A stretch of DNA of 64,000 bases from Chiloscyllium plagiosum (lineage: Eukaryota). Both the position numbers and the translations under genes were made by a program. Where the stretch lies: positions 6,166,885 to 6,230,884 of the forward strand of contig NC_057757.1 of NCBI RefSeq assembly GCF_004010195.1, given 5' to 3'. Below, piece by piece: positions 8,415 through 35,300 of the stretch (positions within the stretch are counted from its first letter, which is position 1; the number at the start of each line of letters is the position of its first letter). Below the pieces are notes generated by a model. That model worked only from the letters and a program-made list of their open reading frames with translations, made no database searches and had not been told where the DNA came from.

Positions 8415-8588
8415 ATGGTCATTCCCTTGCCACCATGCCAATGGTTCCAGAAGGAGAGGTCCTGGATTCCTGCGGAGAAGTGCGCCTACATTGTCGCCGG
8501 CAGACAATGCGTCACTGCTGAGCTGCTCATCTTCTGCCTCTTTGGCTCTGCTGTGCTGGCTGTACTGGTGTTCAACACCTTCACCCTG
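8415..8588 (+). CDS. Candidate first coding exon of a SPEM1-family-like single-pass membrane protein
   Basis: ATG at 8415; 58 aa ending ...RQCVTAELLIFCLFGSAVLAVLVFNTFTL; hydrophobic helix; phase-0 donor CTG|gtaaat at 8589; non-repetitive sequence. Confidence 0.5.
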
Positions 8589-8774
8589 GTAAATGGGAGC
8601 TCGCCTCAGGGATTTGAGGGAGGGATTAGATTGTCCCAGATTCAACAGCCAGGGGGGTTTTAGACATATCCAGCTCTTTGCCTGCGCAGGATTCAGATCC
8701 AAGCTTGTCCCAGAACTTTCCTAATCCAAACAAATTTTAATTTTTTTTGTTTGTACAGACACGTTTATGTAAAC

Positions 8775-9470
8775 GTATGGAATTCAGAGTCAAGGAATTC
8801 CCATCTACAAAGTCCCAGAATTTTACTGGGATTGAGGTCTAAGCAAATGCCAGAATTTTAACGAGATACCCATCTAGATAAATTTCAGAAGGTTAATGGG
8901 ATTGTGGGGTCTTTAAAAATCCCAGAATTTTAATGGGATTTCCCATTTAAACAGATCCCAGAATTTTAATGAGATCTCCATCTACATAAATTCCAGAATT
9001 TTAGTTGGACTGGGCCTTTAAAAAAATCCTGGATTAATGGGATTTTCACCAACATAAACTCCGAACTTTTAGTGGAACTTCCACCTAAACAACTCCCAGA
9101 ATTTTAATAGGATTGAGGTCTAAACAAATTCCAGATGTTTAATGAGCTCTCCATCTACACAAAACCCAGAATTTTGGTGGGATTTCCCACTTAAACAAAT
9201 CCCAGAATTTTAATGAGCTCTCCAGCTACACAAATCCCAGAATTTTAGTGGGTTTTTAAAATCCCAGAATTTAATGGGATTCCCATCTCAACAAATCCCA
9301 GAATTTGAATGGGATTCTCATTCGCACAAACCCCAAAATTTTAGTGGAATTTCCATCTAAACAAATCCCAGATTTTTTATGGGATTCCTGTCTAAACAAA
9401 TTCAGAGCCAAGGTAATTCCAGAATTTCCATGCGATTTAGAATCAAGAATCCCAGAATGGAATCTGGGAA
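8775..9470. repeat. Degenerate AT-rich minisatellite (~37-38 bp unit) with internal dyad symmetry
   Basis: Recurrent aaacaaatcccagaattttaatgggattcccatct. Confidence 0.85.
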
Positions 9471-9871
9471 TGGTTCCAGAACAGGAGTGTCTGTGCTGTC
9501 ACTCCACAAGAACAACTCAGCATCCTTCCCTCCACTCCCATTCCCACTCCCACCTGATATCTCTCCAAGTCCTGCAAATGTTTTCCCTTCGGATAATCAG
9601 AGCCACAAATGGTGCAGTCCCCATAAGGGCTGAAGGGGCCAGATAAAAGGCAATAGCTGTGTAGATGCTGGAGAAAGAGTTTCTTAGACCAGTTTGATAA
9701 TGAGCCTATAGGAAGAGTTGTTGGTAAAACAAAGGGATGGGAGAGAGGGACAGCAGAGGACAGACAAACCAATCAATCTTCAAAGCGGGGGGGGGAGGGG
9801 CCGTGAGGAAATTCATTAAGAAACATGTCACAAGTATTTGTGTACTTTTGTTCATCGGAAGACAGAAGAAA

Positions 9872-9949
9872 GTTGTCAGTTCCTTTAACCAGGCTGGAGG
9901 AAGGTTGTCAGTTCCTTTAACCAGGCTGAAGGAAGGTTGTCAGTTCCTT
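9872..9949. repeat. 32-bp tandem repeat, ~2.5 copies
   Basis: Unit gttgtcagttcctttaaccaggctggaggaag. Confidence 0.85.
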
Positions 9950-11094
9950 GCCGTCTCCACAACCACCATGCACCCAAATCTAACTCTGCCCCTATCTCCA
10001 AACTCTCCTGTCCATTAAACACTGACCTAACAATGTTAGGTGACCTTATCGAATTTTATACAAAATGACATTTACAGATAGGGTTATGTTTTCCCTAGGA
10101 TGGGGGATTTCAAGAATAGGGTGCACATTCTTAAGGCAGAGGTGGGGACTGCAGATGCTGGAGATTATCTAAGGAATGACATCCTGGCATTGCAGTCTAG
10201 ACTAGAGCAGTGCTGGAAAAGCACAGCAGGTCAGGCAGCATCCAAGGAGCAGGAAAAATCGACGTTTCGGGCAAAAGCAGGTGAGAGGAAAGAGATTTTT
10301 AAAAAGACATTACAGGCAATTTTTTTTACAGAGTGACTCGTGTGGAAATAACTTTCTGAGGAAGTGGTGGATGTGGGCACAATTACAATGTTTTAAAAGA
10401 CATTCGGATAAGTACATGAATGGGAAAGGTTGAGAGGGATATAGGCCAGAAGCAGGCAGGTTTAGTTTGAGATTATGTTTGGCATGGACTAGATGGACCG
10501 AAGGGTCTTCTCCGTACTGTATGACTCTATGACTCTCCGATCCAGCCTTTACTCCTGCCTTGAAGACAGCATTCCAAATACCAACAGCCAGTAAAGTGAA
10601 GAGAGGTGTCCTTTTTATTGCAAACACATTTCCAACTTTGGACAAGCATCAGTCACCTCAGAATCATTGAAAGACACATTCAGGAGGAGGCCATTCAGCC
10701 ACTGTGCTTGAACTAGCTGCTTTCTGAATTTATCCAGTTATCTAACTGTTCTCTTTGCTTAGCCCTGGAATTTCTTTTCCCCATGAGCATTTTTCCAATT
10801 CCCAATTTGAAAGTTACCGTAGAATCTTCTTCCACCACCCTTTTCATGCAGCAGGTCATGACAACTTGCAATGTTGTAAAGAGTTTCATTATATTTCTCC
10901 TGGACTTCAAAGACTTTTGCACATCTAGGGACAGATGAGGTGGACAAAACAGATGCTTACATCTGTTCCTGGAGCTTGGATTTTCTCAGATTAGGCCATC
11001 AGTCTGGTGAGCACTGCTCCGCATCAAATGCAGCTGACCAGGAATCTCTCCTGATGTTGGTACTATGGGCTGACCAGAGCCCAATCCTGATGAA

Positions 11095-12360
11095 CTTTAT
11101 CCCAAGGTCTTAAAAGAAGTGACTAGTGAGTTGGTGGATGCATCGATTTTGATTTCCCAAAACTCCCCAGATTCAAGGAAGGTCTTATTAGGGGGATTGG
11201 ATGTGACCATCATTCACCTGTAGTGAATTTAGCTTCTCTATTCAACAACGAAGACAGAAAGCAAGAAACCATAGGCCAGTTAGCTTAACATCTATTGTGG
11301 AGAAAACGTTAGAAACTACTTTTATAGACTTTTTAGCAGGTCACTTGGTTAAATTAAAGGAAAATTAAAGAAATTTCACTTTTGTTTGTCGTTTATATAA
11401 ATGATTTAGATGAGAATATAGAAGGGTTAGTAAGTTTGCAGATGACACCAAGTTTGGTGGTGAACAGTGAAGAAGGTTACCTAAGATTACAAAAAGGACT
11501 TGATCAATTGGGTCAATGGGCTGAAGAGAGGCAGGTGGGTTTTAATCTGGGTAAATGTGAGGTATTCCAATTTGGTAAAACAAACAAGGGCAGGTCATAT
11601 ACAATTAAAAGTAGGGCCTTGGGTTGATTGTCATGTCTATTTTATAGTAAGAAGACAATAAAATATAATGAAAAGCTTTCATTTGTTGCCACGATACGAT
11701 ACCATTTTGAATAATTTAAGAATAAGGAGCGAAAAAGATATAGTTTAAACAGAGTCCATCAGTTTGCCTTCATTGCTTAGACCTTTGAGTATAGGAGTTG
11801 GGATATCACGTTAAGGTTGTACAGGATGTTGGTGAGGGCTGTTCTGGAGTACTGTGTCTAGTCTGGCTGCCCTGTTATAGGAAGGATATTATCAAGCTGC
11901 TGAGGGTTCAGAAGAGATTTACCAAGATGTTGGAAGATTTGAGTTATAAGGAGAGGCTGGATAGGCTGGGACTTTTTCTCACTGTAGGAGGTTACATTTA
12001 TAAAATTATGATGGGTATAGATAAGCTGAATGGCAAGTGTCTTTTCCATAGGGTTGGGGATTTCAAAACTAGGGGGCATATTTTTAAGTAAAAGGAGGAA
12101 GATTCAAAAGAGACATGGGGCAATTTCTTTTCCATGAGAGTGGTTAGTGTGTGAATGAACTTCCAGAGGAACTGGTGGGTGTGGATACAGTTACAATACT
12201 TAAAAGACATTTGGATAAGTACATGAATACAAAATGTTTGGAGGGGTATGTGCCAAGTGCAGACAGGTGGGCCAGTTTAGTTTGGGAACGTGGTCCATGT
12301 GGACTAGTTGGACTGAAGTCTCTGTTTCCATGCTGTCTGACTCTATGACTCTAATTGGCA
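11095..12360 (+). mobile_element. Nested/fragmented CR1 LINE pieces
   Basis: Peptides FVVYINDLDE, GQWAEERQVGFNLGKC and YRKDIIKLLRVQKRFTKML; 3' tail tctgtttccatgctgtctgactctatgactc. Confidence 0.8.
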
Positions 12361-12854
12361 GAGTCAATATGGTTTTGCGAAAGGGAATTTGTGTTAAATT
12401 GATCTGTTAGTGTTCTTTAATGAAGGAATCCTTCAATGTGCTGTAGATAAAGGGGAACCATTGGATGTACTATACTTAAATTTCCAGAAGACTTCTGCCA
12501 TATCATAGAGTCATAGAGATATACAGGATGGAAACAGATCCTTCAGTTCAACTCATCCATGCTGACCAGATATTCCAACCTAATCTAGTCCCATTTGCCA
12601 GCACTTGGCCCATATCCCTCTAAATCCTTCCTATTCATGTATCCATCCAGAGTTTCGAGGGATATGAGCCAAATGCTGGCAAATGGGACCAGGTTAATTT
12701 TGGATCTCTGGTCGGCATTGACTAGTTGGAGCGAAGGGTCTGTTTTCATGCTATGACTCTGAATGTTTCTAATTTAAGTAAATGGGCTCAGATCTAGCAA
12801 ATGGAGTATTATTGTGTGGGAAATTGGAAATTGTCCACTTTGGCAGGAAGAATT

Positions 12855-13162
12855 ATTAGATTAGATTCCCTATGGTATGGAAACAGGCCCTTCGGCCCAA
12901 CAAGTCCACACCGACCCTCCGAAGACCATTCTCCTACATTTACCCCTGACTAATGCACCTAACACTACAGGCAATTTAGCATGGCCAATTCATCTAATCT
13001 GCACATCTTTGGACTGTGGGAGGAAACCGGAGCACCTGGAGGAAACCCACACAGACATGAGAAGATGTGCAAACTCCACACAGATAGTCGCCCGAGACAG
13101 GAATTGAACTCAGGTCCCTGCCGCTGTGAGGCAGCAGTGCTAACCACTGAGCTACCGTGCTG
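12855..13162 (-). mobile_element. HE1-type SINE
   Basis: tRNA-like head near 13160, central core, and (attag)n tail on the reverse strand. Confidence 0.85.
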
Positions 13163-13184
13163 CTCAAATGAAAAAAAAAGCAGA

Positions 13185-14195
13185 TAGAGTCATAGCACGG
13201 AAACAGACCCTTTGGTCCAACTCGTCCATGCTGACCAAATATCCCAATCCAATCTAGTCCCACTTGCCAGCACCCAGTCCATATCCCTCTAAACTCATAT
13301 TCATATACCCATTCAGATGCCTTTTAAATGTTGCAATTGTACCAGCCTCCACCACTTCCTCTGGCTGCTCATTCCATACACATACAACCCTCTGTGTGAA
13401 CAAATTGCCCCTCAAGTCTCTTTTCTATCTTTCCCCTCTCACCCTAAACCTATGCCCGTTAGTTGTGGACTCCCCCACCCCAGGGAAGAGACTTTGTCTA
13501 TTTATCCTATCATGATTTTATAAACCTCTAGAAGGTCACCCCTCAGTAATGAAAGATTGCAGAGGGTTCTAGGTGTCCTGCCCAGAAGGAGCCAGAAAGG
13601 ACTAATATGCAGATACAGCAAGTAATGCGGAAAGCTAATTGGGAACTGAACACAAAAGCGGGGAGGTTACACTTCAGTTATATAGGGCATTGGTGAGCAC
13701 TGTATTGGTCTCCTTATTTAAGGAAGGATGCAAGTATGTTGGAGGCAGTTCGAGGGTCCATTAGACTCATACCTGGAATGGGCAGGTTGGACAGGCTGGG
13801 CTTATATCCACTAGAATTTCGGAAAGTATAGAGCGACTTGACTGAAACATGTAAGATCCTGAGAGGTCCTGATTGGGTGGATGTGGAGAGGATGGATCTT
13901 CTTGTGGGAGAATCTAGAACTGGGAGTAACTGTTTAAAAAGAAAGGGGTCACCCATTTAAAATGGAAAGGAGGCGATTTCTTTTCTTATAGTCGGCCATA
14001 AGTCTTTGGAACTCTCTGCCTCAAAAGCAGAGCCTGTGAATGTTTTGAAGGCTGAAGGAGGTAGATTCTTGCTAAGCAATGGGGCAAAAGATTTTCAGGA
14101 GATGGAGGAATGCAGATTTGAGGTTAGAATCAGATCAGGCAGCATCTTATTGAATGGCACAGCAGGTTTGAGGGGCTGAATGGCCTACTCCTGCT
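13185..14195. mobile_element. CR1 fragments in both orientations
   Basis: Reverse CR1 tail at 13185-13545; forward CR1 RT end and 3' UTR at ~13550-14195. Confidence 0.7.
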
Positions 14196-14677
14196 CATAC
14201 ATTCACTCTTACCATATGCCAAAGGCACATGTTGGAAGGATGTTCAGACTGAACCTCAGCCTGTTTGACCATGTTATGAACACTTCTGAAAGGGACTTGG
14301 TCCCATAGCCTCTGGATCAGAGGCAAGAACACTGTCCATTGCCTCACATTAGCTCTGGTCCTTTTGCCAATAACTTAAATCTGTGTCCCTCTGTTTACGA
14401 GCCTCCTTAGCAGTGGAGTTTCTCCCACTTTCATTTCCTCCATCAAAGACCTTCAGAATTTTGAGCATCTTCATTAATAGCCCTTTATCCATCTCTGACT
14501 CAGGGAGAGCAAGTCTGACTTTCAACCTCTCCAATTGGCTGGCATCCCTCATCCTTGGCATCATTCTGTACAAATCCATTCAGCACTCTCTTCCAAGGCT
14601 TTCTCATCCCTCTCGATAGTGTGATGCCAAGACCTGAGCACAACATTCCAGTTCAGATGATCCAGTACTTTACAAAG

Positions 14678-14998
14678 AATCATAGAATCCCTACAGCCAT
14701 TCGGCCCATCAAATCCACACCAACCCTCCAAAGAGCATCATACCCAGACCCACCCTATCCCTGTGACCCTACATTTCCCCATTGATCCTAGCCTGCACAT
14801 CCCTGGACACCATGGGCAGCCTAGCATGGCCAATCCACCCTAACCTGCACATCTTTGGACTGTGGGAGGAAATCGGAGTAAACCCACACAGACACGGGGA
14901 GAACATGCAAACTCCAACACAGCCAGTAGTCTGAGGTCAGAATCGAATCTGGATCCCTGGCACTGTGAGGCAGCAGCGCTAACTACTCGGTCCCTGTG
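14678..14998 (-). mobile_element. HE1-type SINE
   Basis: Matches the other HE1 copies in reverse orientation. Confidence 0.8.
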
Positions 14999-16799
14999 CA
15001 TTTCTATGCCATGACTCTATTGTTAGAGTCAGGAATCCTGAACATCTTTTCTTAAGCAATCTTTTCTCCTGTTGTGTTGCCTACTAAGAGTTGTGTAGCT
15101 CTGCCCCCACCCCTTTCCGTTCTCAAACATGCTATCATCATCCCTTTTAATCAATGCTGCTGCTTCTGATTCTTCAAAGTGCATCACTTCACCCTTCATG
15201 TGTGTGGAGTTCATGTATGTAAATTCATGGAGTGTCCATAATAAATAAAATTGCAAGAAATAGGAGCATGAATAGGCCATTCGACCCCTCAGGACTGTTC
15301 TGCCATTCATTATGATCATGACTGATCTCACTGTGGTCTTAACTCCACTTTCCTGCACTGCCCTCAGCAACCATCAACTCCTGTGACAATCAAAACCTCA
15401 TTGAAACGGCTTCTGCTGCTCTCTCGGGGAGAGAGTTTCAAAAACTCATGATGCTCTGAGAGAAGAAGTTCCTCCTCATCTCCTCAGAGAGACCCCTGAC
15501 TTTGAAAGTGTGCTCCTGGTTCTCAGTTCCCTCACAAGAGGAAACTTCTCAACATGCACTTTGTTGGGCGTCCTCAAGAGTCTTATGTCTTTCAATTTGA
15601 TCACCTCTTATTCAAAACTCCAATACGATCACCTCTTATTCAAAACTCCAATACTTATAGGTCTAACCAGCTTGACCTTTCTTTAGAAAGACAAGTCCTT
15701 TGTCCTGGGAATCAGGACAGATTGGAGGATCTTCATCAGCTGATATTTTATCCTGAGTTATTTCCATCTTAGTATTTTTTGCCAGTTGGGGTTTGCCATT
15801 TCCTTCCACTTCAAGAGGCATATCCCGAGACCATTTCACCTGGATGGGGAATTCAAATCCCACCATTGTTGATTGATGGGAAAAACCCATCAGACCGGCT
15901 CATGCCTTTTAGGGAAGGAAACGTCGATTCTCCTGCTCCTTGGATGCTGCCTGACCTGCTGCGCTTTTCCAGCAACACATTTTCAGTAGGGAAGGAAACT
16001 GCCATCCTTACCTGGTCTGGCCGACATGTGGCTCCAGACCCACAGCAATGTGGTTGACTCTTAACTGCCTTCTGGGAAATACATGTTGGCCTAGCCAGTG
16101 ATGACTTCATCCTGTGAATAAATAAAGTAAAATGCTTGAATGACCCTGGTTCAATTCTCCCTCGAGCTAGTCTTTCTTTGGACTCTATGATTGGACTTGG
16201 CTTCCTGTGTATGCCCTGCAGGTAAATGGTTTTGCCATGATTGAGTGTTTTTTTTAGTTCATTGTAACAGCACTGCAAACAGTGATGCTTATAATTGTTC
16301 AAACAAACTTAGTTTCCCTGATATAAGCACAAAAAGTGCTGGAGAAAAACAGCAGGTCTAACAGCATCTATGAAAGCAGAAACCGCTAACATTTCCGATT
16401 CACTATGACTCTTTCTGAGAATACGAAGGACTCTTCAAAATGCTTCGTGTTCTGAGAAAAAGTCATACCAGACTCGAAACATCAACTCTGTTTTTCTCTC
16501 TCTGCAGATGCTGCCAGACCTGCTGAGTTTCTCCAGCATTCGTTTCAGATTTGCGCAGAACTCTGCTTTTATTGGTTCGTCTGATGCTAACTTCCATTTT
16601 ATTGTTCACACAGTTTATTTTGAAAGTGAAGACTTTGATTGGCAGCTGTGGTAAGCTTCTGATACAACATGCTTGCAAGTATATCCAGTGATGAAAAAGA
16701 TAGTTTTATTGGAGGACAACCTTCTCACAAGCATGCGCTGTTAATTCGATCGTTAATTTATCCAAAACTCAAAAAAGTCAGTGTGTCTTGCTCTCTAAG

Positions 16800-16856
16800 C
16801 TGCTGCAAGGGCAAAGGTCAGTGTGCGTGGGCATTTGGAAAACTTTGAACCCAACC
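16800..16856 (+). CDS. Candidate 57-bp exon 2 of the SPEM-like gene (LLQGQRSVCVGIWKTLNPT)
   Basis: Acceptor tcttgctctctaag and donor ACC|gtgagt; open in phase 0; non-repetitive flanks. Confidence 0.3.
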
Positions 16857-17063
16857 GTGAGTGACTCAGGGGGTAGTGCTCCTACCTCCGGATCAGATGA
16901 GAATTGGTGGTGCTGAGCGAATGCAGAGGAGCCACCAATCAGGAGAGAGACATTAAACCACCAGCTGTGGCTGGGCATTAAAGATTCCTTGGTGCCAATT
17001 AGAAGGAAAGCAGGGAGCGAGAACCCCACTGGAATACAATTGGAAAGTGCTGCAGGACCCTCA

Positions 17064-17372
17064 GCACAGTGGCTCAGTGGTCAGCCCTGCTGCCTCACAG
17101 CACCAGAGACCTGGGTTATATTCCACTCTCAGGCAACTTCTGTGTAGAGTTTACACATTCTCCCCATGTCTGTGTGGATTTCCTCCTGCAGTACACGCAT
17201 ATGCAGGTTAGGTGGATTGGCCATGCTAAGTTGCCCATGGCGTCCAGGGATCTGTAGGTGAGATGGTTTAGCCATGAGCAGTGTGGGCTGTGGCTCTGGG
17301 TGGGCTGCCCTTCGGAGGGTCTGTGTGTACTCAATGGGCTGAATGGCCTGCTTCCACACTGTAGGGATTCTA
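17064..17372 (+). mobile_element. HE1-type SINE
   Basis: Begins gcacagtggctcagtgg and ends ttccacactgtagggattct. Confidence 0.85.
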
Positions 17373-17449
17373 AGTTGGGCAGGATCTTTCCCAAGCACTT
17401 CCTGTTCTTATTTCAGATCTCCAGCAACAACAGCGTTTTGCTTTGAGTT

Positions 17450-17655
17450 ATCTCTGGTGTCCTGTGGCCAATATTGATCCCTCGGCAAACATCACAAAAA
17501 CAGATTATGTGGTCATTATTACATTGCTGTTTGCAGGAGCTTGCTGTGTGTAAATGAGCTGCTGTGCTTCGTATAACATTACTCTGTTGGCTGAGGAAGC
17601 ACGTTAGGGCATCCTGGGCTAATGGAAGGTGATATTTAAATACAAGTCTTGCTTT
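17450..17655 (+). mobile_element. Ancient Deu-domain-like SINE fragment (SacSINE1/AmnSINE-like)
   Basis: acattgctgtttgcaggagcttgctgtgtgtaaatgagctgc; similar degenerate copies at ~6260-6390 and on the minus strand at ~38060-38200. Confidence 0.5.
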
Positions 17656-18591
17656 TTGTTCTTTCTGACCTCCTTAAACAATGCAATTTAAGGATTGAGA
17701 AAGAAAGACAGAAAGAAGGGAAATTTCACGTCAAAAGAGAGAGAGAGAGAGAGAGAGATAAAGAGAGGGAAAGAAAGACTGGATGGAGAGACAGTGAAAA
17801 AATCCACATAGAAACAGTAAGAAAGTTTTTTAGATGTTTTAAATCTTTAAGATTGGAGTTGGTGGAATGACCCTGTACAGTTTAAATGTTCACTTTCCAG
17901 ATCAGGAGGGGTTTGTTGTATTTTGCATTTGCAGTTATCACTGTTACAAGGCCTGACTTCCTGCAAGGACTTTAGAGGGCTATTAATATGCAAATCCAAC
18001 AAAACTTTGGACAGCAGAATGGGATCCTTCATATCCACCGGAGAGAGTAATTACGGCCTTTGTTAATCTCATCTGACAGCCGTATCTATCTAGATTTTAC
18101 AAGAATGCGAGAAGATCTCATTAAAACTTAAGATTCAAGGGGGCTCGGCAGGATAAATGCTGAGAGGGTGTTGCAGGACTCTAGACATTGGGGGTGTGGG
18201 GAGGGGGCATAGTTTCAACATGGGGGATCTCCCTTTTAGGAGGGAGATAAAGAGGATTATTTTTCTTTCAGAGGTCTTTAGTGTTTGGCATTCTCTCACA
18301 CCAGAGAGCAGCGGATATATATTAAAGTTTGCATTAGACAGGTTTCTGATTGAAGAGGGAGTCAGCAGTTGTAGTCGGAAAGGTGGAGCTGGGACCATAA
18401 TCAGATTAGCCATACTCTTGCTAGATGGCAGAGCAGGCTTGAGGGGCAGAATAGCCTGGCCCTTGCATTCTTGAGAACACATCTTCAGTTTTGCACTGGA
18501 CAGTCTACCTGAGCTACTTGAGCTTGGAGTGGTAATTAAACCTGCAAACTCCTGACTCAAGGGGCTATTAGCCCCAGCTGACCCCTCACCA

Positions 18592-19998
18592 GGGTGGGAC
18601 GGTGGCTCAGTGATGGGTACTGCTGCCTCACAATGCCAGGGACCCGGGTTCAATTCCAACCTTGGGCGACTGTGCAGAGTTTGCACATTCTCCCTGTCTG
18701 CATGGGTTTCCTCTAGGTGCTCCGGATTCCTCCCACAGTCCAAAGATGTGCAGGTTAGGGTGGATTGGCCATGCTAAATTGCTCATAGTGTGCAGGTTTG
18801 TTGGATTGACCATGCTAAATTGCTCATAGTGTGCAGGTTAGATGGATTGACCATGCTAAATTATCCATATTGCCCAGGTATGTGCATGTTAGGGTGGACT
18901 GGCCATGCTAAATGCTAAACCTCTACAAAGGTTTATCTTAGCCTGCTGGACCAACTTTCCTCATTCCTGAAGAAGGGCTAATGCCCGAAACGTCGATTCT
19001 CCTGTTCCCTAGATGCTGCCTGACCTGCTGCGCTTTTCCAGCAACACATTTCCATCTCTGATCTCCAGCATCTGCAGACCTCACTTTCTCCTCAAAGATT
19101 TCAACCTACTGCGAATCCTTTTACAAGGATGCCTTCCTTGAAGAAGCTCTCTTCCTCCCTCTACAAAGATTGCTGGACAAACTTTCCCCATTCCTGAAGA
19201 AGGGCTTATGCCCGAAACGTCGATTCTCCTGTTCCCTGGATGCTGCCTGACCTGCTGCGCTTTTCCAGCAACACATTTNNNNNNNNNNNNNNNNNNNNNN
19301 NNNNNNNNNNNNNNNNNNNNNNNNNNNNNNNNNNNNNNNNNNNNNNNNNNNNNNNNNNNNNNNNNNNNNNNNNNNNNNNNNNNNNNNNNNNNNNNNNNNN
19401 NNNNNNNNNNNNNNNNNNNNNNNNNNNNNNNNNNNNNNNNNNNNNNNNNNNNATGGGCTAATGCCCGAAACGTCGATTCTCCTGTTGCCTAGATGCTGCC
19501 TGACCTGCTGCGCTTTTCCAGCAACACATTTCCATCTCTGATCTCCAGCATCTGCAGACCTCACTTTCTCCTCAAAGATTTCAACCTACTGCGAATCCTC
19601 TTACAAGGATGCCTTCCTTGAAGAAGCTCTCTTTCTCCCTCTACAAAGGTTTATCTTAGCCTGCTGGACCAACTTTCCTCATTCCTGAAGAAGGGCTAAT
19701 GCCCGAAACGTCGATTCTCCTGTTCCCTAGATGCTGCCTGACCTGCTGCGCTTTTCCAGCAACACATTTCCATCTCTGGCCATGCTAAATTGCCCATGGT
19801 GTCCAGGGATGTGCAGGTTAGGGTGGATTGACCATGCTAAATTGCCCATAGTGTCCAGGGATGTGCAGGTTGTGTGGGTTAGCCATGGGATGTGCAGTTA
19901 CAGGGAGAGGGTTGGATCTGGGTGGTATGGTCTTCGGAGGGTTGGTATGGACTCTATGGATCGAATGGCCTGCTTCCACACTTAGGGATTCTATGATT
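18592..19998 (+). mobile_element. HE1 SINE interrupted by a tandem array of PLE termini
   Basis: SINE head at 18592-18913 and SINE tail at 19776-19998, with a ~238-bp unit repeated in between. Confidence 0.8.
18921..19775 (+). repeat. Tandem ~238-bp PLE-terminal units, each with a hammerhead-like core (contains N gap)
   Basis: ctctacaaag at 18921, 19159 and 19639. cctgaagaagggctaatgcccgaaacgtcg (or a 1-nt variant) in each unit; the copy after the gap is truncated. Confidence 0.85.
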
Positions 19999-20614
19999 CA
20001 GTCACAACCACAAATGAGAAACATGTCCTGATGACTCATTAGCTCACAGCAACCAGTAGATGAACCACACAATCAAGAAACTGTTGAAGATTGGCAACAA
20101 TCCCAGCTTTAGATCATTGTTCAGTGTCCAGCCAATTTTCCACACCTTGTAGGTCAACCTCAGCCTCAGTTTGAGATTGCCACAGTGGCCTTGCCCTCAA
20201 CCCCTCACTTCCTTTTATTTGTAACCTCAAGATCACTGCACACTTCCAACTCACCCCCCGAATCATCTTCTGTTCCCACCATTGGTGGCCGTGACCTCAG
20301 TTGTCTGAGCTCTATGTTCTGGAATCCTTTCCCCTAAACCTCTCATCCTCTCTCTCTGTCCTTTAAGACAATCCTTAAAACTTATAACCTTTGGTCACCA
20401 GTCCCTTTGTTCTTCTTATGTGACTCAGTGTCAGATGTCATTTGGATAATACTTTTTTGAGACACTTTATTAGGTTAATGGGGAAGTGATGGTGCAGTCA
20501 TATTTTTGCTAGAGGTCCCAGATTCAAATCCCACAGGGTTAAAAGTTTAATATAATTAAAAGAAAATCTGCAGATGAAAAGTGACTGTGAAATCATTGTT
20601 ATAAGCTATTGTTT

Positions 20615-20960
20615 GGGGTGACATGGTGGCTCAGTGGTTAGCACTGCTGTCTCACAGTGTAAGGGACTGGGTTAGAGTCCACCCTTGGGCATCTGTCTGT
20701 GCGGAGTTTGCACATTCTCCCCGTGTCTGCGTGGGTTTCCTCTGGTTTCCTCCCACAGTCCAAAGATGTGCAGATTAGGGTGGATTGACCATGCTAAATT
20801 GCCCATTGTGTCCAAGGCTGTGAGGCGAGGTGGATTAGCCATGGGAAATATGGGGTTACAGGGATAGGGTAGGAGGGTATGGGCGAGCTGCTGTTCTGAG
20901 GGTTAGCATGGACTCAATGAGCTGAATGGCTTGCTTCCAAACTGTAGGGTTTCTACAATA
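20615..20960 (+). mobile_element. HE1-type SINE
   Basis: Head ggtggctcagtggttagcactgctgtctcacag plus core and tail. Confidence 0.85.
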
Positions 20961-21352
20961 GGATTCTCTGAAATGCCCTTCAGAGAAGGAAATCTGGTCT
21001 AGGGTATGTGTGACTTGAGACCCACAAGAAGACATGGTAAATCTTAACTGGTAATTAAGATGGGTTGATAAGTGATTGAGACATTGCAACTGTTTTTTTT
21101 TTAAATAAAGGTGCCTTATTGTTATTTTGCAACTCTCTGAGTCAAATAGTTTATGAATGCCTAAAACTGGGCTTGGACTTAATGGGCCGAATGGACGCCA
21201 TCTAAGCCATAATGGATACCTGAGCTCATGCACAAAGAGCAGAAGTCTTTGATGATGTGAAACATCAGTATGAGGCCTTAGTCATCAGATAAGTCATAAT
21301 TGCAAATACAAATGATTTTGATAAAAATTCCAATATTTGTTTTGATTCTTAG

Positions 21353-21409
21353 GCACGGAGACAAGAGATGCAGTTACCCAAGTCTCGGCAACCAGACTTT
21401 GTTCTTCAT
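21353..21409 (+). CDS. Candidate 57-bp internal exon (ARRQEMQLPKSRQPDFVLH in phase 0)
   Basis: Strong acceptor atttgttttgattcttag and donor CAT|gtgagt; open frame. Confidence 0.35.
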
Positions 21410-21807
21410 GTGAGTTGAAACTAATTCTCTAGTGTCATCCAAGTGACACAGTGCACTGGCATCACGGGTGATTGGCTAAATAGTCCCTCCAAGTCATCAA
21501 ACACTTCCCAACTGGGACCGCTTTGGTTAGTCTGAGTGAGCTGTGCCCTGTGGGCCCCATTCTCAGCCTCTGCAGAGTTTGAATAGGGTGACCTCCAGCA
21601 GCCAATGGGGTAAAGTTGTCTAAAGTCAGATTGGCAGGATAAAGGGATGGTGTTTAAAAGGATATATACTTGGAAAGGAAAGGTCATATGATATGGGGGA
21701 ACAGAAGGGGACTGGGAATAATCAGATAGCTTTCAAAGCGCTGGGACCAGCACATGATGGGCCAAGTGACCTCTGCCAGTACCTTACATTGCATTTTTAC
21801 AAATGGT

Positions 21808-22165
21808 GGGAGGCACGGTGGCTCAGTGGTTAGCACTGCTGCCTCACAGTGTCAGAGAGCCAGGTTCAATTCCACTTTTGGGTGACTGTCTGTGTGAAGT
21901 TAACACATTCTCCCCGTATCTGCATGAGTTTCCTCTGGGTGCTCCGATTTCCTCCCACAGTCCAAAGATGTGCAGGTTAGATACATTGGCCATGCTAAAT
22001 TGCCCATATGGTCCAGGATGTGTAGGTTAGGTGGATTGACCATGGGAAATGTAGGGTTATGGAGATAAGATTGGGTGATGAGTCTGGGTGGGATGCTCTT
22101 CAGAAGTCAGCGTGGACTCGATGGGCCGAATGGCCAGCTTCCACGCTGTAGGGAATTCTATGATT
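21808..22165 (+). mobile_element. HE1-type SINE
   Basis: Full head, core and tail. Confidence 0.85.
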
Positions 22166-22509
22166 CACAATGAGGACAAGGAGGAGGTAACCATTTGCAT
22201 ACAGTGTTAAAGACAGCAGATTCTGGCCTCTTAAGTGGAGATGTTGAAGCTCCTCCATGGCCTTCCAGTGTAGGGCTTGGGACCACAGAAGGCCCTCCAA
22301 TGGAGTAAACCCACTGACGTGCTTCAGAAAGGTTTGAGGGGACTGGACACTGCGTCTAGTCAAAAAGGCAAGCAAGCAAGCAGGGGTGGGGATGATCTCA
22401 GTCAGAGGGGCTTTAAACTGATGTTCCCGACAAGCTGCAGGGCTGGGCAGTGCTCTGGAATGAGTACCTTCAAGATGAGCACTTCTCCGACTGGACACCT
22501 TTCTTAAAG

Positions 22510-22553
22510 GTACCACGCAGTGCAGCAAACAGGCCACGGAAAACAAAGACAAG
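22510..22553 (+). CDS. Candidate 44-bp exon (VPRSAANRPRKTKT, phase 0 to 2)
   Basis: Modest acceptor cctttcttaaag and donor AAG|gtaaag; phase is compatible with the acceptor at 28088. Confidence 0.2.
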
Positions 22554-24002
22554 GTAAAGGGAAGATGGCTGAAGGCATGGCTGACAATGACGGAGTGTAG
22601 GGACGGAGAAAATAGGGGTCCCGTAGGAATAAAGAATTCAAGGAAAGGTGCAGAACAGAGTGCTGGAGGAGGTTAGGGCTCTAATCTGGTAACCACCAAG
22701 ATGGCTGCCTTATAGACCTCTTTGCAGCTCCACACTCATATTACAATCCTTCACCCTTTTCCCCACAGTTTCCTATCTAACATCCTGGGACCAATTTAGT
22801 CCAAGCTATTATAGAGTCATCGAACTGTACAGCACAGACTTGTCCATGCCAATCAGGAATCTTAAATTAATCTAGTTCCATTTGCCAGCACCTGGCCCAT
22901 ATCCCTCCAAACCCTTCCTATTCATATACTCAACCAGATGCCTTTTACATGGTGCAATTGTACCAGCCTCCACCACTTCCTCTGGCAGCTCATTCCATAC
23001 ACGCACCACCCTCTGTGTGAAAAAGTTGCCCATTAGATCCTTTTGAAATCCTTCCCTCTCACCTTAAACTTATGTCCTCTAGTTTTGGACCCCCCACCCC
23101 ACCAGGAAAAAGACCTTGGCTATTCATCCTATCCATGCCTATTAACCCACTCACCTTATCCATCCACCCTATTAAGCTCACGCTGCAATCCCTATAGCCT
23201 ATCAAACACCTCTCCTGACCCTGTCCTCTCGACCTTTGGAACTCTGCTCAAACCTGTCCTTCCGCCTCTTCCCTCAGGATTGCGTGGCTGCGCTGAACTC
23301 CACTGCAAGGTTCTTGACTGGTGTGACTCTGCTCTGCTACTCATTCGCCTCAAGATTTAAGGTAACCTTTTCCCACCCCGTCCTGCAAGTGGTTCATGAA
23401 GGTAGCTCGCTATCACTTTCTCCAGGGCAATTAGAGACAGGACGATAAATGCTGGCCCACCCAGCAACGTCCATGTCCCATTAACAAATACCATACAAAA
23501 AGTGTCCGATTTCCCATCAATGCAAGGCTGCTTCCTCACTTTCTGGGGTCTCACAGTAATGTCCAATTGCCTGTGGATTGTGTCGGGATTCATTGGAACA
23601 GTGCACGCAAATCAAACTCCATCATTCCTGCAGGTATTACAAATTTGATCAAGCCACTGATGTGACCAATTTTACCAACTTCACGTTAAAAGAATACAGG
23701 TTTCTTTTTTCTATTAACAAGATAAACAACCTTTTTTTTAACCAATGGCACAATAAAAGACAAAAATGACGAAAAACTATGGAGGATGGAGATCTGAAAC
23801 AAAGAGTATCCCCAGGAAAAAAAATGGACAAGTTGAAACACTAACCGATAAATGAATCTCTACCCCTTTCTTAAAAATCCCTTACATATACAGTCACACA
23901 AAACAAGATGTGCAAGCATTGTAGCTGGGGAAGATTTTGTTAAAACGTCAGATGGACAGTCCTGGCACCAGTCTGGATCACAGATGGTGATGAGTTGTTG
24001 TC

Positions 24003-24728
24003 AAGATTAGAGAGGTGCTGGAAAAGCACAGCAGGTCAGGCGGCATCCGAGGAGCAGGAACATTGACGTTTCGGGCAAAAGCCCTTCATCAGGAAATCAA
24101 CAAAGGCCTTACCTTCATCCCCCTCCGTCTATGCATCAACCATTTCAATACGCGTTGTGATGTCAAACACTTCTTTTGCCGCCTCCGAGCTTACATTTTT
24201 CATCAAGACTCCCGCCCACCTTCCGAGGACCCCTTCACCCGCCTCCAACACGCTGCATCCATCTGGACACCCCGCTCTCAACCTCTTTATTTCCAACTGC
24301 CGCCGAGACATTAACCATCTCAACCTGTCTACCCCCCTCCCCCAACTCCAACAATGCGCAGCCCTCCACTCCAACCCCAACCTCACCATCAAACCAGGAT
24401 GGGGGGGGGGGGGGGGGGGGGGTGCAGTGGTAGTTTGGCGCACTGACCTCTACACCACTGAAGCCAGATGCCAACTCGAAGACACCTCCTCCTACCACCC
24501 CCTCGACCACGACCTCAACCCCCCAACACCAAACCATCATCTCCCAGACCATACACAACCTCAACCTCATCACCTCAGGGGATCTCCCACCCACAGCTTC
24601 CAACCTCATAATTCGGGAATCCCGCACCACCCGGTTTATAAACCTCAGGTGCTGCCTGACCTGCTGTGCTTTTCCAGCACTACACTCTCGACTCTAATCT
24701 CCAGCATCTGCAGTACCCACTTCTGCCC
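24003..24728 (+). mobile_element. Penelope-like RT N-terminal fragment flanked by inverted PLE termini
   Basis: KGLTFIP...FFCRLR and LHSNPNLTIKP..GGAVVVWRTDLY (PLE IKPADKGG-type motif, disrupted by a poly-G run); terminal repeats at 24003-24095 (-) and 24650-24728 (+). Confidence 0.75.
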
Positions 24729-25139
24729 ATCAATGAGTTGTTTTCTAGTGATTATCCGTTGACTCCTTCCAATTCTTTGCTAATGATGTGAGGTGGTGAA
24801 TGCACTGCTTTTCAGTCTTTCATTCACTGGGTTTGGATCTGCCCTTCCAGTACCTCTGAGGGGGCTCTTTTCCCTTTTTCTTCCAGGTGGGGCTTTGCAG
24901 AGAGAGGAGCAGGAAAATCGATGTTTTGGGCCTGAAACATCGATCTTCCTGCTCCTCGGATGCTGCCTGACCGGCTGTGCTTTCCCAGCACCATACTCTC
25001 AAAATTGTAAATACAACTTATTTCTGTAACCTGCTTCTAAAACTGCAAACATATTACACAGTTTCCTTGGTTTAAAGCAGTATCTTCCCATTTTTAATCT
25101 ACCATCCGCCATGGACGGGTTGGACCAAAGGGACCAAGA

Positions 25140-26420
25140 GTGTGGAAATAGACAAGTCCCCTGGGCCAGATGGGATCTATCCTAGGATCCTCAGGGATGC
25201 AAGGGAAGAGATTGCTGAGCCTTTGGCATTGATCTTCAAATCATCATTGTCTACAGGAATAGTGCCTGAGGACTGGAGGATACCAAATGTGGCTCCCTTG
25301 TTCAAAAAGGATCGTAGAGGCAATCCTGGTAATTACAGACCAGTGAGTCTCACTTCAGTTGTTGGCAAAGTGTTGGAAAAGGTTATAAGAGATAGGATTT
25401 ATAACCATCTAGAAAAGAATAATCTGATCAGGGACAGTCAGCACGGTTTTGTGAAGGGTAGGTTGTGCCTAAGGAATCTTATTGAGTTTTTTGACAAAGT
25501 GACCAAACAGATATATGAGAGTAAACCGGTTGATGTGGTGTATATGAATTTCAGCAAGGCGTTCGATAAGGTTCCCCACAGTAGGCTATTATACAAAATG
25601 TAGAGGAATGGGATTGTGGGAGATATAGCAGTTTGGATCAGTAATTGGCTTGCTGAAAGAAAACAGAGGGTTGTAGTTGATGGAACATGTTCATCTTGGT
25701 GTCCAGTTACTGGCGGCGTACTGCAAGGGTGGGAGTTGGGTCCACTGCTCTTCGTCATTTTTATAAATGACCTGGATGAGGGCTTAGAAGGGTGGGTTAG
25801 TAAATTTGCGGACAACACTAAGGTCGGTGGAGTTGTGGATAGTGACGAAGGATGTAGTAGGTTNNNNNNNNNNNNNNNNNNNNNNNNNNNNNNNNNNNNN
25901 NNNNNNNNNNNNNNNNNNNNNNNNNNNNNNNNNNNNNNNNNNNNNNNNNNNNNNNNNNNNNNNNNNNNNNNNNNNNNNNNNNNNNNNNNNNNNNNNNNNN
26001 NNNNNNNNNNNNNNNNNNNNNNNNNNNNNNNNNNNNNNNNNNNNNNNNNNNNNNNNNNNNNNNNNNNNNNNNNNNNNNNNNNNNNNNNNNNNNNNNNNNN
26101 NNNNNNNNNNNNNNNNNNNNNNNNNNNNNNNNNNNNNAAAGTGAGGGGAGATAGGTAGAAGACAGATGTCAGAGGTAGTTTCTTTACTCAGAGAATAGTA
26201 AGGGTATAGAATGCTTTGCCTGCAACGGTAGTAGATTCGCCAAGTTTAAGTGCATTTAAGTCATCATTGGACAGGCAAATGGACGTCCATGGAATAGTGG
26301 GATGGGCTTCAGATTAGTATGACAGGGCGGCGCAACATCGAGGGCCGAAGGGCCTGTATTGCGCTGTAATGTTCTATGTTCTATGTCTGTTTCCATGCTG
26401 TACATCTCTATGACTCTATG
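25140..26420 (+). mobile_element. CR1 LINE ORF2 (RT) fragment with 3' end; contains N gap
   Basis: Peptides KSPGPDGIYPRIL, NYRPVSLTSVVGKVLE, FSKAFDKVPH and [11 protein letters not shown]; in-frame stop at 25601-25603. Confidence 0.9.
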
Positions 26421-26584
26421 ACAATAGATACTGGCACAAAGGGCTCACAATCACCTTTATATTTCACCCCCACCTCCTCTAAGCCATTCTCCATCCTGAC
26501 TTGTAGAAGTATCACCATTCCTTCAGTGTCACTGGGTCAAAATCCTAGAACCCCCTCCCTAACGGCACTGTGTGGGTGTCCCCT

Positions 26585-27925
26585 TTTTTAAATTTATTCA
26601 TTTGTGGGGTGTGGGTGTCGCTGACTGGGCCAGCATTTATTGCACGTCCCTATTTGCCCCTTGAGAAGATGGTTGGTGAGCTGCCTTCTTGAATCACTGC
26701 AGTCCACCTGCTGTAGGTTGACCCACAACGTCATTAGTAAGTGAATTCCAGGATTTTGATCCAGTGACAGTGAAGGAGCTGTGATTTTTTTTTTCCAAGT
26801 CAGGATGGTGAGTGACTTTGAGGGGAACTTGAAGGTGGTGGTGTTCCCATGTAGCTACTGCCCTTGTCCTTCAAGATGGAAATGGTAATGGGTTTGGAAG
26901 GTGCTATCTGAGGATCTTTGGTGAATTTCTGCCGTACATCTTGTAGATGGTACATACTGCTGCTACTGAGCGTCGGTGCATCACCAGCGTGCACGTGGCA
27001 TGTCATTTTCCAATACAACCCTGGAATGGCCCATCACTCATCCAGTAAGGAGCTTGAAGTCAACCTAATGTCATTGGAAAAGTGGTTTGGTAGGCCACCT
27101 TGAATCCTGTCAGCCTGGCAGTCTCTGTGGCTCCGCAAGGCAAGCTAAGGTCTCAGATTCCCATTCCATCACCTTACTGGTGAGCTTGGCAAAGCCAGCC
27201 CAGCCTTTGGCACTCCTTGTCCCCAGAGGCAAAACACAGCACCACCGTTTGAGGACGTAGCGCCAATCAAGCAGCCTGCTTTGAGCAGCACGATGGCTCA
27301 GTGGTTAGCACTGCTGCCTCACAGCGTCAGGGACCTGGGTTCAATTCCAGCCTAGGGAGACTGTGTGGAATGTGCGTATTCTCCCAGTGTCTGCGTGGGT
27401 TTCCTCCGGGTGCTCTGGTTTCCTCCCACAATCCAAAGATATGCAGTGAATTGGCCATGCTAAATTGCCCATAGTGTTCAGGAATGTGTAGGTTAGGTCA
27501 ATTAGACAGAGGTTAATGTAGAGTAATGGGGAATGGGTTTGGATGGGATCCTCTTTGGAGGGTTGGTGTGGACTTGGCCTGAAGGGCCTGTTTCCACACT
27601 TTAGGGGTTCTATTCTTCTATCCTCTTTGTCCTGGATGGTGTCAAGCTTCTTGAGCTGCACCCATCCAGACAGGTCGGGAGTATCCCATCACAATCCTAA
27701 CTTGTGCCCTGTAGATGGTGGAGTCAGGAGGTGAGTTACTTGCTGCAGGATTCCCAGCCTCAGACCTGCTCTTGTAGCCACTGTGTTTCTGTGGTGAGCC
27801 TAGTTGAGTTTCTGGTCAATGATAACCTCCAGGATATTGACAGTGTCGGATTCAGTGATGGTAACACCATTGATGGTAATACCATTGATGGTCATTGCCT
27901 GACATTTGTGTGGTACAAACTTCCA
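26585..27925 (-). mobile_element. LINE (L2/CR1-group) 3' fragment, interrupted by an exon-derived duplication and an HE1 SINE (27285-27612, +)
   Basis: Colinear with the similar element at ~61320-62120. Confidence 0.6.
26979..27247 (+). pseudogene. Diverged partial copy of coding sequence 28572-28843
   Basis: Direct alignment, e.g. ggcccatcactcatcc, ggcaagctaag and ggtgagcttggcaaagccagcccagcct are shared; CAA>TAA change and indels in the copy. Confidence 0.9.
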
Positions 27926-28181
27926 TCACACGCCCTCCACCACACAGAGCTCACTTCCACCTTCTCAGCTGGTAAATTAGGACCAGGCAACAAAATGTTG
28001 GCCTAACCATCCATAATCCCAAATACATTTAAAAATAAATTTAGATTTTCAGCGATAACTTTAACACTATCTTTGCTTAATTCTCAGGTGCCAATGTGAA
28101 AACAGCAGTCCCATGGTCAGATGTATTCTGCTCCAATGTAGATAAGCTCAAACAGAAGAACGTGCCCTCTATAAATTAGTA

Positions 28182-29708
28182 ATGCAAGGTTCAGCAGATG
28201 AACCCCGCCCTGCCAATCCACATTTAGGCAGTTGCTTTCTGAAGCACCAACAGGCAAATTCTAACGAGTTCAGGAGTCACAGCGGAGAGGCCGGCCCCCT
28301 CCAGCTCTCCGAGGAGAGACACCAAATGCCCGCTCTCGAGTTGGATCAAGGCCTTGGATTGGCTGCGACCCCGTGCACGGACAGACCTCGAGACAGCACC
28401 GACTCCAGAGTGGCCAAACTCAGGACTCCCCGGATTGCTAAGTCCTGCCCCGGTTCGGGATTGGTCTGCAACTCTGAGGGCTGCCAGAACCCGGCCGTGC
28501 TTCCGTGCACGAGAACTCCTGAACCCTGCCTTCGACACAGAGAACCAGGGGTTCACCATCACCACCACCACCATCACCATCGCGCGCGTAGTGTGTCATT
28601 TTCCGATGCGACCCTGGAGTGGCCCATCACTCATCCGGTGAGGAGCCTGAAGTCAACCCAATGTCAGTGGAAAAGTGGTTCGGTAGGCCACCCTGAATTC
28701 TGTCAGCCTGGCAGCCCCTGTGGCTCAGCGAGGCAAGCTAAGATCTCAGATTCCCATTCCATCTCCTTACCGGTGAGCTTGGCAAAGCCAGCCCAGCCTC
28801 TCGGCAACCCTGGTCCCCAGAGGCAAAACAAAGCACCGCAGTGTCGCTTTAGCTCCGATCCTGTCCGATGTTCTAATGCCTCACACTCTCATTCTAGCTC
28901 TTGCCCAGTAATGCGTGCGGTCACATCTCATTCTTACTACCCTATTCCTAGCCCGGTACGACACACAGACACCTCCCAGTCTAGCCCTGCTCCAATGAGG
29001 CACACTGAAACGCCTCCAGTCCCCTTTAGCTCCACTGCGGTTAGACACACTGAGCCAACTCACTCTCGTTTGACCCCACATACCGTCCGATGTTCCAACA
29101 CGTCGCACTCTCACTCCAGCCCTGGCCCGTTGAGGCATGAGCAAACACCTCAGCCTCATCTCATTCCTCCTTCGGTCCAGTGTACTAACAAATCCCACTG
29201 TCACTCTAAATCTGGTAGCCCGAAGCACACGGAGCTGTGTCGGTCCCATCTGAGCCCCGATTCTGTCCGATGTGCAAACACATCCCATTCACACTCCATG
29301 CCCACCCTGATAAAGCACTCAGAAACTCCTCCCATCCCCTCCAGCTCTTGCCTGAAACGGCAAAGCGAGCCCCCCTGGTGCCAATTTCCCCGGGATCCTT
29401 CACGGTGCGTGAATGCCTCGCGTCTTCACTCTGGCTTCTGTCCGACAAAGCATGTCGAACCGCCTCGGTCTACCTCGATCTCGGGTCCAGTGAGGCACAC
29501 TGCCATCTCTCACTCTCAACCCATCTCAGCCTCGGCAAGGTGTGCAAACACATCGCACTCTCACTCAGCACCGGCTCCGACAAAGAAAATGCCAGTGCAC
29601 CAATCTAACTTCAGTCAGGACGAGTCCAAGCAAGCACAAAGACCTCAGACTGCCTTCAGCCTGATCCCAATAGGAGCTACCAGAAGTGGTGACGGTCAGG
29701 TACGCTAA
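28182..29708 (+). CDS. 508-codon His/Ser/Pro/Cys-rich ORF with poly-His and 15-aa tandem repeats; probable large exon (acceptor at 28088, possible donor after 29699) of the SPEM-like gene
   Basis: 1.5-kb stop-free frame in non-TE DNA; H9 at 28554-28580; degenerate 45-bp repeats that keep frame; CAG|gtacgc at 29699/29700. Confidence 0.65.
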   Translation: MQGSADEPRPANPHLGSCFLKHQQANSNEFRSHSGEAGPLQLSEERHQMPALELDQGLGLAATPCTDRPRDSTDSRVAKLRTPRIAKSCPGSGLVCNSEGCQNPAVLPCTRTPEPCLRHREPGVHHHHHHHHHRARSVSFSDATLEWPITHPVRSLKSTQCQWKSGSVGHPEFCQPGSPCGSARQAKISDSHSISLPVSLAKPAQPLGNPGPQRQNKAPQCRFSSDPVRCSNASHSHSSSCPVMRAVTSHSYYPIPSPVRHTDTSQSSPAPMRHTETPPVPFSSTAVRHTEPTHSRLTPHTVRCSNTSHSHSSPGPLRHEQTPQPHLIPPSVQCTNKSHCHSKSGSPKHTELCRSHLSPDSVRCANTSHSHSMPTLIKHSETPPIPSSSCLKRQSEPPWCQFPRDPSRCVNASRLHSGFCPTKHVEPPRSTSISGPVRHTAISHSQPISASARCANTSHSHSAPAPTKKMPVHQSNFSQDESKQAQRPQTAFSLIPIGATRSGDGQVR

Positions 29709-30152
29709 CAGAATCCGTCGCCTGGTGCTGACCTCTTTGGTAAGCCTGACTTCAAATCTCGCAAAGATGACAAACTGGTCCAGTCTCACACTTGTTGTAT
29801 TATCTGACCTGCAACCTGAACTCAACTTGTCGCGCCATTGTCTCAATCCACTTTTATTAGTGACCTTCTAAATCCAGGCTGTGGTCAACCTGAGATTCGG
29901 AGGTCAGAGAGAACAGACAAGTAGAGAGGTGACCCTGCTGATCTTCAATTGCTTCACTGGCTTTGCAAACCATTTCTCAACACCGGAGTTTTCATTACCT
30001 TCTCAGTCTATTGCCTGTCAAAAGAAAATTGGACATGCTCTACCTCTTTAAAACCCCATGGGGCACACTTGATCGGTTATTTTACCATATCTCAAAATGT
30101 AGTCACACTAATAAAGGCAGAGTGGAAAACGTTACCTTTCTTGTCTTCACAT

Positions 30153-34504: not shown

Positions 34505-35300
34505 AGGGCGCGATCTGCGCACGCTCAATCCCGGACGCAACGGCAAGGCGTGCTATACGCATGCTCTATTCCGGCAGCACCGACGGTACTAGAACAGCGC
34601 ATGCTCTTTCCCGGATGAGGGGGAGCCATGGCAAGCACGTTATACGCATACTCTCTGCCGGGAGTGACGGCAGAGTCAGAAATACGCATGCTCCATGCAG
34701 GTGGAACGGCAAAGCCAGTTATACGCATGTTCTATGCCAGCAGCGACGGCAGGACTGACACTGCGTGCTCTAGTTCGCGAGTAGAGCACGTTATTCGCAT
34801 AGTCTATATCGGGAGGGACGGCAGAGCCAGATATCCGCATACTCTGTACCGGGCGCGACGGCAGAGCCAATCATGCGCATGCTCCCTGCCGGGGGAAACG
34901 CGGAGCCAGTCATGCGCATGCTCCATGCCGGGGGGAAAACGGCGGTGCCAGTCATGCGCATGCTCTATGCCGGGAGGAAACGGCGGTGCCAGTCTTGCGC
35001 AGGCTCTATGCCGGGGGGAACGGCGGAGCCAGTCATCCGCATGCTCTATGCCGGCAGAACTGACGCTGCGTGCTCGAGCTCGCGAGCGGAGCGCACGTTG
35101 CACGCATGCTCTATGCCGGCATCACGCCCGCGGGCGGGTGGCGCCGGTCCAGCGCGTGCGCACAGCGGGGAAGCAGGTTGGGTGGTGTCCATGGCGGTTT
35201 GGAACCTGTGGAATATTAAACCGTCGGGCCCAGGGCAGGGAGGAGCTGGTGACTCAGTCCGGAAACACCGGCTTGGAGCTGACTCAGGGGGCGGGCTGAA
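34505..35300 (+). promoter_or_regulatory. CpG-island promoter and probable non-coding first exon of the MB21D2/TMEM102-family gene
   Basis: CpG-dense region; ~38-bp repeats containing (T/A)CGCATGC; TGACTCA at 35250 and 35280; CCGGAA at 35259; GC box at ~35288; candidate donor CAG|gttggg at 35176/35177. Confidence 0.6.

Follow-up and report, generated by a model that had tools for sequence, protein, structure and literature searches.

The window analysed here, a stretch of 64,000 nucleotides of the Chiloscyllium plagiosum genome (C48:6,166,885-6,230,884, where C48, like C13 below, is a scaffold label of this assembly), contains a locus located between TMEM256 and a gene of the TMEM102 lineage, the slot that the genes SPEM1, SPEM2 and SPEM3 occupy in mammals. 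The locus comprises an exon encoding a transmembrane (TM)-grade stretch (positions 8415-8588 of the window) and, further downstream on the same strand, an open reading frame (ORF) of 508 amino acids (aa), which starts with its own Met, is conserved in other sharks and is separated from the TM exon by stop codons behind the splice acceptor at 28088. Our best explanation, still a tentative one, is that the locus, which is single-copy, may be a fast-evolving descendant of the SPEM ancestral gene, and that carpet sharks probably make two proteins from it instead of one. Homology to SPEM in any form, judged from position and layout, appears to us an evenly balanced matter. According to the available text of the respective papers, SPEM1-3 are testis-enriched and without known domains (PMC10904452); both PMC10904452 and PMC13711846 describe them as mammalian genes that are essential for the shaping of mouse sperm. 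SPEM2 comprises three exons and measures 57 kDa (PMC10904452), and SPEM3, with its TM helix at residues 26-48, builds the sperm posterior ring together with TEX50 (PMC13711846).

The assignment of the locus to the SPEM slot is based on its two direct flanks. TMEM256 (DUF423), complete with four exons, is located outside the window at approximately C48:6,151,556-6,161,330; its end lies about 14 kb 5′ of the TM exon and no 500-N join interrupts the sequence from TMEM256 to the long ORF. DUF423 gave two matches over the cut-off in the whole genome, both of them representing this TMEM256. On the other side, a Mab-21-family gene, a paralogue of MB21D2, was found at 43207-49238 of the plus strand (coding exons approximately 43207-43426 and 47965-49238; Pfam Mab-21), in agreement with the earlier note on this DNA, which had described a TMEM102/MB21D2-type neighbour in the same orientation. 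Human MB21D2 scored 730 bits with the window gene vs 873 bits with a copy on C13, and the two shark proteins are 72% identical. C13 carries the true MB21D2 copy together with NLGN1; some 375 kb downstream of this copy, and on its strand, there is an FGF exon. NLGN2 (best PDB match neuroligin-2) is on C48. Since the C13 copy scores higher to MB21D2 and NLGN2 sits on C48, we assigned the window gene to the TMEM102 lineage; the name is thus inferred from the paralogon. As the shark proteins are still very close, the database names of the TMEM102-lineage gene and MB21D2 may be swapped. An MB21D2/FGF12-type locus, which the earlier note had named as an identity that would refute its reading, was excluded for the window, that locus being on C13.

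The human order is PLSCR3, TMEM256, NLGN2, SPEM1, SPEM2, SPEM3, TMEM102 and FGF11, according to the available text of PMC11939864. The shark order comprises a scramblase gene (5.60 Mb), an intracellular-type FGF exon (5.93 Mb, minus strand), a zonadhesin-like gene, TMEM256 and the studied locus, followed by the TMEM102-lineage gene, a P5-ATPase gene, PPP1R35 and a MEPCE-like Bin3 gene. The bracketing pair and the strand thus correspond to those of the SPEM genes; NLGN2 and FGF are present on the scaffold but not in the human order. NLGN2, predicted to lie upstream, was not found there: its exons are about 3 Mb downstream on C48 (C48:9,164,917 and 9,428,900, minus strand), and a single minus-strand gene could not have them in the order observed. 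Similarly, no FGF gene follows downstream; the sole FGF exon on the scaffold, flanked by two 500-N joins, lies 5′ of the locus at a distance of about 240 kb and in the opposite orientation. The mis-ordered NLGN2 exons and the location of the FGF exon between two joins make the long-range order on C48 unreliable. The positional argument itself held and is stronger than originally stated, TMEM256 and the TMEM102-lineage gene flanking the locus on the scaffold that bears NLGN2.

The exon at 8415-8588 (plus strand) is probably a real coding exon. Its 58-aa ORF from ATG 8415 contains one predicted TM helix and ends, as described in the earlier note, in a hydrophobic 27-mer directly followed by a phase-0 GT donor. 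The maximum Kyte-Doolittle value for a 19-mer (2.51) falls on residues 35-53, and the donor ranks in the top 1.8% of the GT sites of the window (all splice-site percentiles given here were obtained with a rough generic matrix by ranking among the window sites). The exon was found to be single-copy by a genome-wide DNA search of the 3.56-Gb genome. It may alternatively be an internal exon entered from an acceptor at 8379 or 8401. Both strands of the surrounding 964 kb, with 490,418 unmasked bases, were scanned for a TM-grade stretch with at least 40 open codons before a strong donor. Of the 1,260 strong donors only two qualified as such sites, that of this exon and that of one exon within the downstream P5-ATPase gene. 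A Markov null model yielded three such sites in 1.5 Mb, which corresponds to approximately 0.04 expected in the interval from TMEM256 to the long ORF (17,568 unmasked bases), with the thresholds chosen after the exon was known. Looser thresholds gave four sites among 650 donors in a 464-kb region, two of which were unexplained as sense-strand coding exons. The codon score of the exon was positive with either of two training sets.

The context of ATG 8415 is weak and that of an out-of-frame ATG within the exon is stronger. This second ATG (8435) stands in a perfect GCCACCATG context and opens a predicted 28-aa ORF (8429-8521, plus strand); the 9-mer around it occurs ten times in 869 kb on both strands. 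A shift by one base would join the 28-aa ORF to the TM stretch. No CRE, RFX or MYB consensus was found near the start of either the TM exon or the long ORF, and two GC boxes are close to the TM exon. Affiliation of the exon with either upstream gene was excluded: the zonadhesin-like gene possesses EGF and TM exons of its own (C48:6,119,768 and 6,122,370) and is separated from the exon by TMEM256, which is itself complete, with its stop near C48:6,161,330.

The long ORF at 28182-29708 (plus strand) is an intact single-exon frame of 508 codons and, as judged from its sequence conservation, it is a real gene. The predicted protein is basic (pI about 9.4), rich in Ser (16%), Pro (12%), His (8.5%, including a His run) and Arg, and without a TM helix (best 19-residue Kyte-Doolittle score 0.29). 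From residue 229 to approximately 467 it is built of 15-residue repeat units of His, Ser, Pro and Cys with six Cys-x-Asn cores. The protein is predicted to be disordered, which is consistent with the pLDDT of 0.31 of its Atlas model; a search of the ESM Atlas with it gave no usable feature matches, and all structure matches were below 0.3 (TM score, by query). Orthologues are already predicted in RefSeq as uncharacterised proteins of Chiloscyllium punctatum (XP_072447390.1), Stegostoma tigrinum (XP_048380303.1, LOC125448801) and Rhincodon typus (XP_048475924.1, 'extensin-like'); their names carry no link to SPEM and none has the TM exon. The identities are 69-97% (97% for C. punctatum, 72% for S. 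tigrinum and 75% for R. typus in our alignment). All four proteins share the start Met and the end, none includes a TM helix, 333 of the 508 residues are invariant and 21 of the 23 Cys are kept. A single RVxF-type motif (residues 136-140), a docking motif for protein phosphatase 1 (PP1), is conserved in all four species. In neutral simulations at 26% divergence, the frame stayed open in only 3 of 2,000 runs. Among the 24 sequencing-run entries listed for this region, 12 contained part of 28088-29760 and none was catalogued as RNA, which has no bearing on expression or splicing. A decayed partial copy of the long exon (26979-27243, plus strand; 266-nt alignment, 88% identical) lies 1.6 kb upstream of it, in the putative upstream intron with repeats on both sides, and represents a natural neutral control. 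It contains one stop and a 1-nt deletion, and its CpG number has dropped from 11 to 3, whereas the intact gene shows no such decay. The partial copy and the gene differ by 14 amino-acid changes before the deletion, at nine of which only the intact copy agrees with the other sharks.

The earlier note had joined the TM exon and the long ORF to a single protein, with an N-terminal TM helix and a disordered tail, through five exons (8415-8588, 16800-16856, 21353-21409, 22510-22553 and 28088 onwards). AG and GT are present at the boundaries of all five exons and the phases, taken together, do match that of the long ORF; however, an in-frame TAA at 28143-28145 terminates the product at 129 aa. The acceptor at 28088 (top 0.5%) is the best in its region, and the segment 28088-28181 (plus strand) is the likely 5′ part of the last exon. 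The three frames entered from this acceptor stop at 28097, 28177 and 28143, each before ATG 28182. The arrangement TAG TAATG at 28177-28184 places the last two stops of one frame so that they abut and overlap the ATG of the long ORF. Among 64 combinations of six candidate middle exons, none reached the long ORF through 28088. The five-exon fusion is therefore excluded, and the SPEM-like combination of a single N-terminal TM helix and a long tail in one polypeptide was not obtained through this acceptor. The orthologues in three other sharks, annotated without a TM helix, also speak against the single protein. Fused open frames of 542-620 aa could be constructed only with weaker acceptors, e.g. 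28180 (top 19.5%; 24 of the 64 combinations) or 28254 (top 14.9%; 8 of the 64).

The middle exons, all on the plus strand, are candidates of uneven quality. The exon 21353-21409 (57 nt; acceptor top 2.1%, donor top 0.6%) outscores the other middle exons proposed in the earlier note, the speculative 16800-16856 (57 nt, phase 0-0, single-copy; acceptor top 9.7%, donor top 9.2%) and the speculative 22510-22553 (44 nt; acceptor top 12.8%, donor top 1.0%). An additional speculative exon at 23278-23320 (43 nt), absent from the earlier chain, would move the phase to 1; of all candidates in the stretch from the TM exon to the last exon it has the best combined score. There are at least six candidate middle exons in the interval, which also includes two N gaps. 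No second copy of any of the five proposed exons was found in the 464 kb surrounding the window, and the three of them that were searched genome-wide are each single-copy. No repeat origin was found for the proposed exons by a DNA search that skips very common words.

In our preferred explanation, a descendant of the SPEM ancestor read as two proteins, the locus would form one transcription unit in which the TM exon is spliced via some of the small exons to 28088. The upstream product would be a single-pass membrane protein of approximately 60-180 aa (129 aa for the chain of the earlier note). Translation of the 508-aa ORF might start at ATG 28182 on the mRNA that also encodes the upstream product, through re-initiation or after leaky scanning, or else on a transcript that omits the TM exon. 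An upstream frame in phase 1 would terminate at TAG 28177, two bases short of the ATG, which itself overlaps a second stop, a layout that would suit re-initiation; in the phase proposed in the earlier note it would end 36 bases earlier. A stop-start arrangement of the TAG TAATG type is known mainly from viruses. By analogy with mouse SPEM1-3, both proteins may act in elongating spermatids, where the small one would provide the membrane anchor and the Cys/His repeat protein, basic and disordered, the scaffold. Disulfides or zinc could cross-link this scaffold, and its conserved RVxF-type motif could serve for PP1 binding. The more far-reaching proposal that the SPEM genes date to the jawed-vertebrate ancestor and that the carpet-shark gene was split into a two-protein mRNA with its ATG at the TAG TAATG stops is, in our opinion, rather unlikely.

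The resemblance to the mammalian genes concerns layout. Besides the genomic slot shared with SPEM1, SPEM2 (C17orf74) and SPEM3, the shark locus has a single TM helix near the start (residues 35-53 of the shark exon, 26-48 of SPEM3) and, like the mammalian genes, small early exons (candidates in the shark) before one long last exon without known domains. The product of that exon, approximately 500 aa, is comparable in size with the 57-kDa SPEM2. In contrast to the mammalian SPEMs, the shark locus gave no profile or sequence match, its TM helix and long tail are separated by stops, its exons are probably more than three, one locus stands in place of three tandem genes, NLGN2 is not adjacent and the protein contains the 15-residue Cys/His repeat. 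TEX50, a testis-enriched TM protein acting beside the long scaffold SPEM3, may illustrate, although only by analogy, how a small membrane protein could act as a separate product beside a repeat scaffold.

Several results weigh against SPEM kinship. A match to the Spem1 profile, the check that the earlier note had called for, was obtained neither for the TM exon nor for the long ORF nor for the locus in a genome-wide search. At E ≤10 (the HMMER filters drop most matches above approximately 0.1), Pfam Spem1 (PF15670) gave nothing with the 58-aa exon or the 32 aa of its TM part, nor with the long ORF and each of its halves, and the only genome-wide match (E 4.4) was on another scaffold. A short motif ascribed to mammalian SPEM tails was absent from the interval. 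The available text of PMC10904452 states that no SPEM2 orthologue was found in fly, zebrafish or chicken, and the literature matches listed contained no link of SPEM to sharks. No homologue of the 58-aa exon, sharks included, was found by phmmer among 1.84 billion representatives, a search of low power with such a short hydrophobic query; the four matches, all Kelch-type or tandem-repeat proteins, were rejected as noise. Neither did any longer protein among 17 candidates contain the exon. The out-of-frame ATG 8435 might reduce translation from the TM frame or point to a change of frame. Searches with the long ORF (5,689 candidates) and with a four-sequence profile (2,796 candidates), both among proteins of 271-910 aa, led to the same two clusters and detected no relatives outside the four carpet-shark proteins. 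Finally, the region is rearranged, with NLGN2 absent, the zonadhesin-like gene on the 5′ side and P5-ATPase, PPP1R35 and the MEPCE-like gene on the 3′ side, so another gene could have moved in. The ESM Atlas contained no neighbour of the 58-aa exon, and a metagenome scan for relatives gave 95 pattern matches, none of which was confirmed. The human SPEM1 27-mer quoted in the earlier note for comparison with the hydrophobic segment shares with it, if taken as given, 6 of 27 residues by hand alignment, a level reachable by chance for hydrophobic helices, and we consider it a lead only. Because both the profile search and the search for a single TM-plus-tail polypeptide were negative, we did not classify the locus as a SPEM member.

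These results suit an unrelated, lineage-restricted gene or genes brought between TMEM256 and TMEM102 by the rearrangement of this small chromosome, with only a generic likeness to SPEM (a TM helix and a low-complexity tail). We regard this as unlikely, but as the alternative to be taken most seriously. It agrees with the uniformly negative sequence tests, with the mixture in the neighbourhood of genes from human 17p13 with 7q22 and 3q29-paralogue genes and with the 15-residue repeat, which does not figure among the SPEM features described in the available text of the cited papers. However, both direct flanks are the genes that bracket human SPEM1-3, the strand agrees with that of the TMEM102-lineage gene, and the rare combination of a TM stretch with a donor is located just where the SPEM layout predicts it. 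Moreover, fast-evolving proteins escape searches of this kind, and counterparts of these proteins were not found in other shark orders either.

Two other alternatives question the division into two proteins. One TM-anchored protein of approximately 540-620 aa with the canonical SPEM layout would arise if a weak acceptor were used (e.g. 28180 together with the phase-1 exon 23278-23320) or if TAA 28143 were an assembly error or a rare allele, which we consider improbable. The open frames described above for 28180 and 28254 would permit it, and a single base change would open the earlier chain, which is in the phase of the long ORF. On the other hand, the alternative acceptors rank only in the top 15-56% vs 0.5% for 28088, and the annotated proteins of the three other species start at the common Met. 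Furthermore, an open upstream frame would provide an earlier in-frame ATG at 28113, and the fused form of a close relative (286-910 aa), which would be expected in the protein searches, did not appear. If instead the 508-aa ORF alone were the gene, 8415-8588 and the small exons would be non-coding (5′ untranslated region or intergenic) and the hydrophobic frame fortuitous; we give this little credence. No database protein, even from sharks, contains the TM exon, so either annotation has missed it, as would be the case for an upstream ORF, or it does not code for protein. The weak context of ATG 8415 followed by the stronger out-of-frame ATG, and the two unexplained sites at looser thresholds, favour the latter possibility, whereas the chance expectation of about 0.04, the positive codon score under two training sets and the common omission of upstream ORFs by annotation pipelines argue for a coding exon.

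If the descent from a SPEM ancestor is true, the SPEM family would be older than described, dating from the jawed-vertebrate ancestor, with a member in a lineage that fertilises internally. A shark counterpart would then show which core is conserved, the TM exon, the position or the disordered tail, and a conserved division into two ORFs would be uncommon among vertebrate genes. The analysis also provides a testable identity for an unnamed shark protein and flags a small membrane ORF that is likely unannotated.

The surroundings of the locus include three further elements. The zonadhesin-like gene (C48:5,993,589-6,122,460; VWD and TIL domains by Pfam, MAM-like, EGF-like and TM exons by eye) directly 5′ of TMEM256 is a second gene of a sperm-associated type near the locus. 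A P5-type ATPase gene (ATP13A-like, C48:6,250,950-6,298,848) follows right after the TMEM102-lineage gene. Human ATP13A4/5 are near MB21D2, and the shark gene may represent a paralogue which was retained here but is missing from human 17p13. Within the window, a GC-rich, CpG-island-like tandem array of 40-nt units (5.9 copies) at 34818-35054 is located upstream of the Mab-21-family gene and is possibly its promoter.

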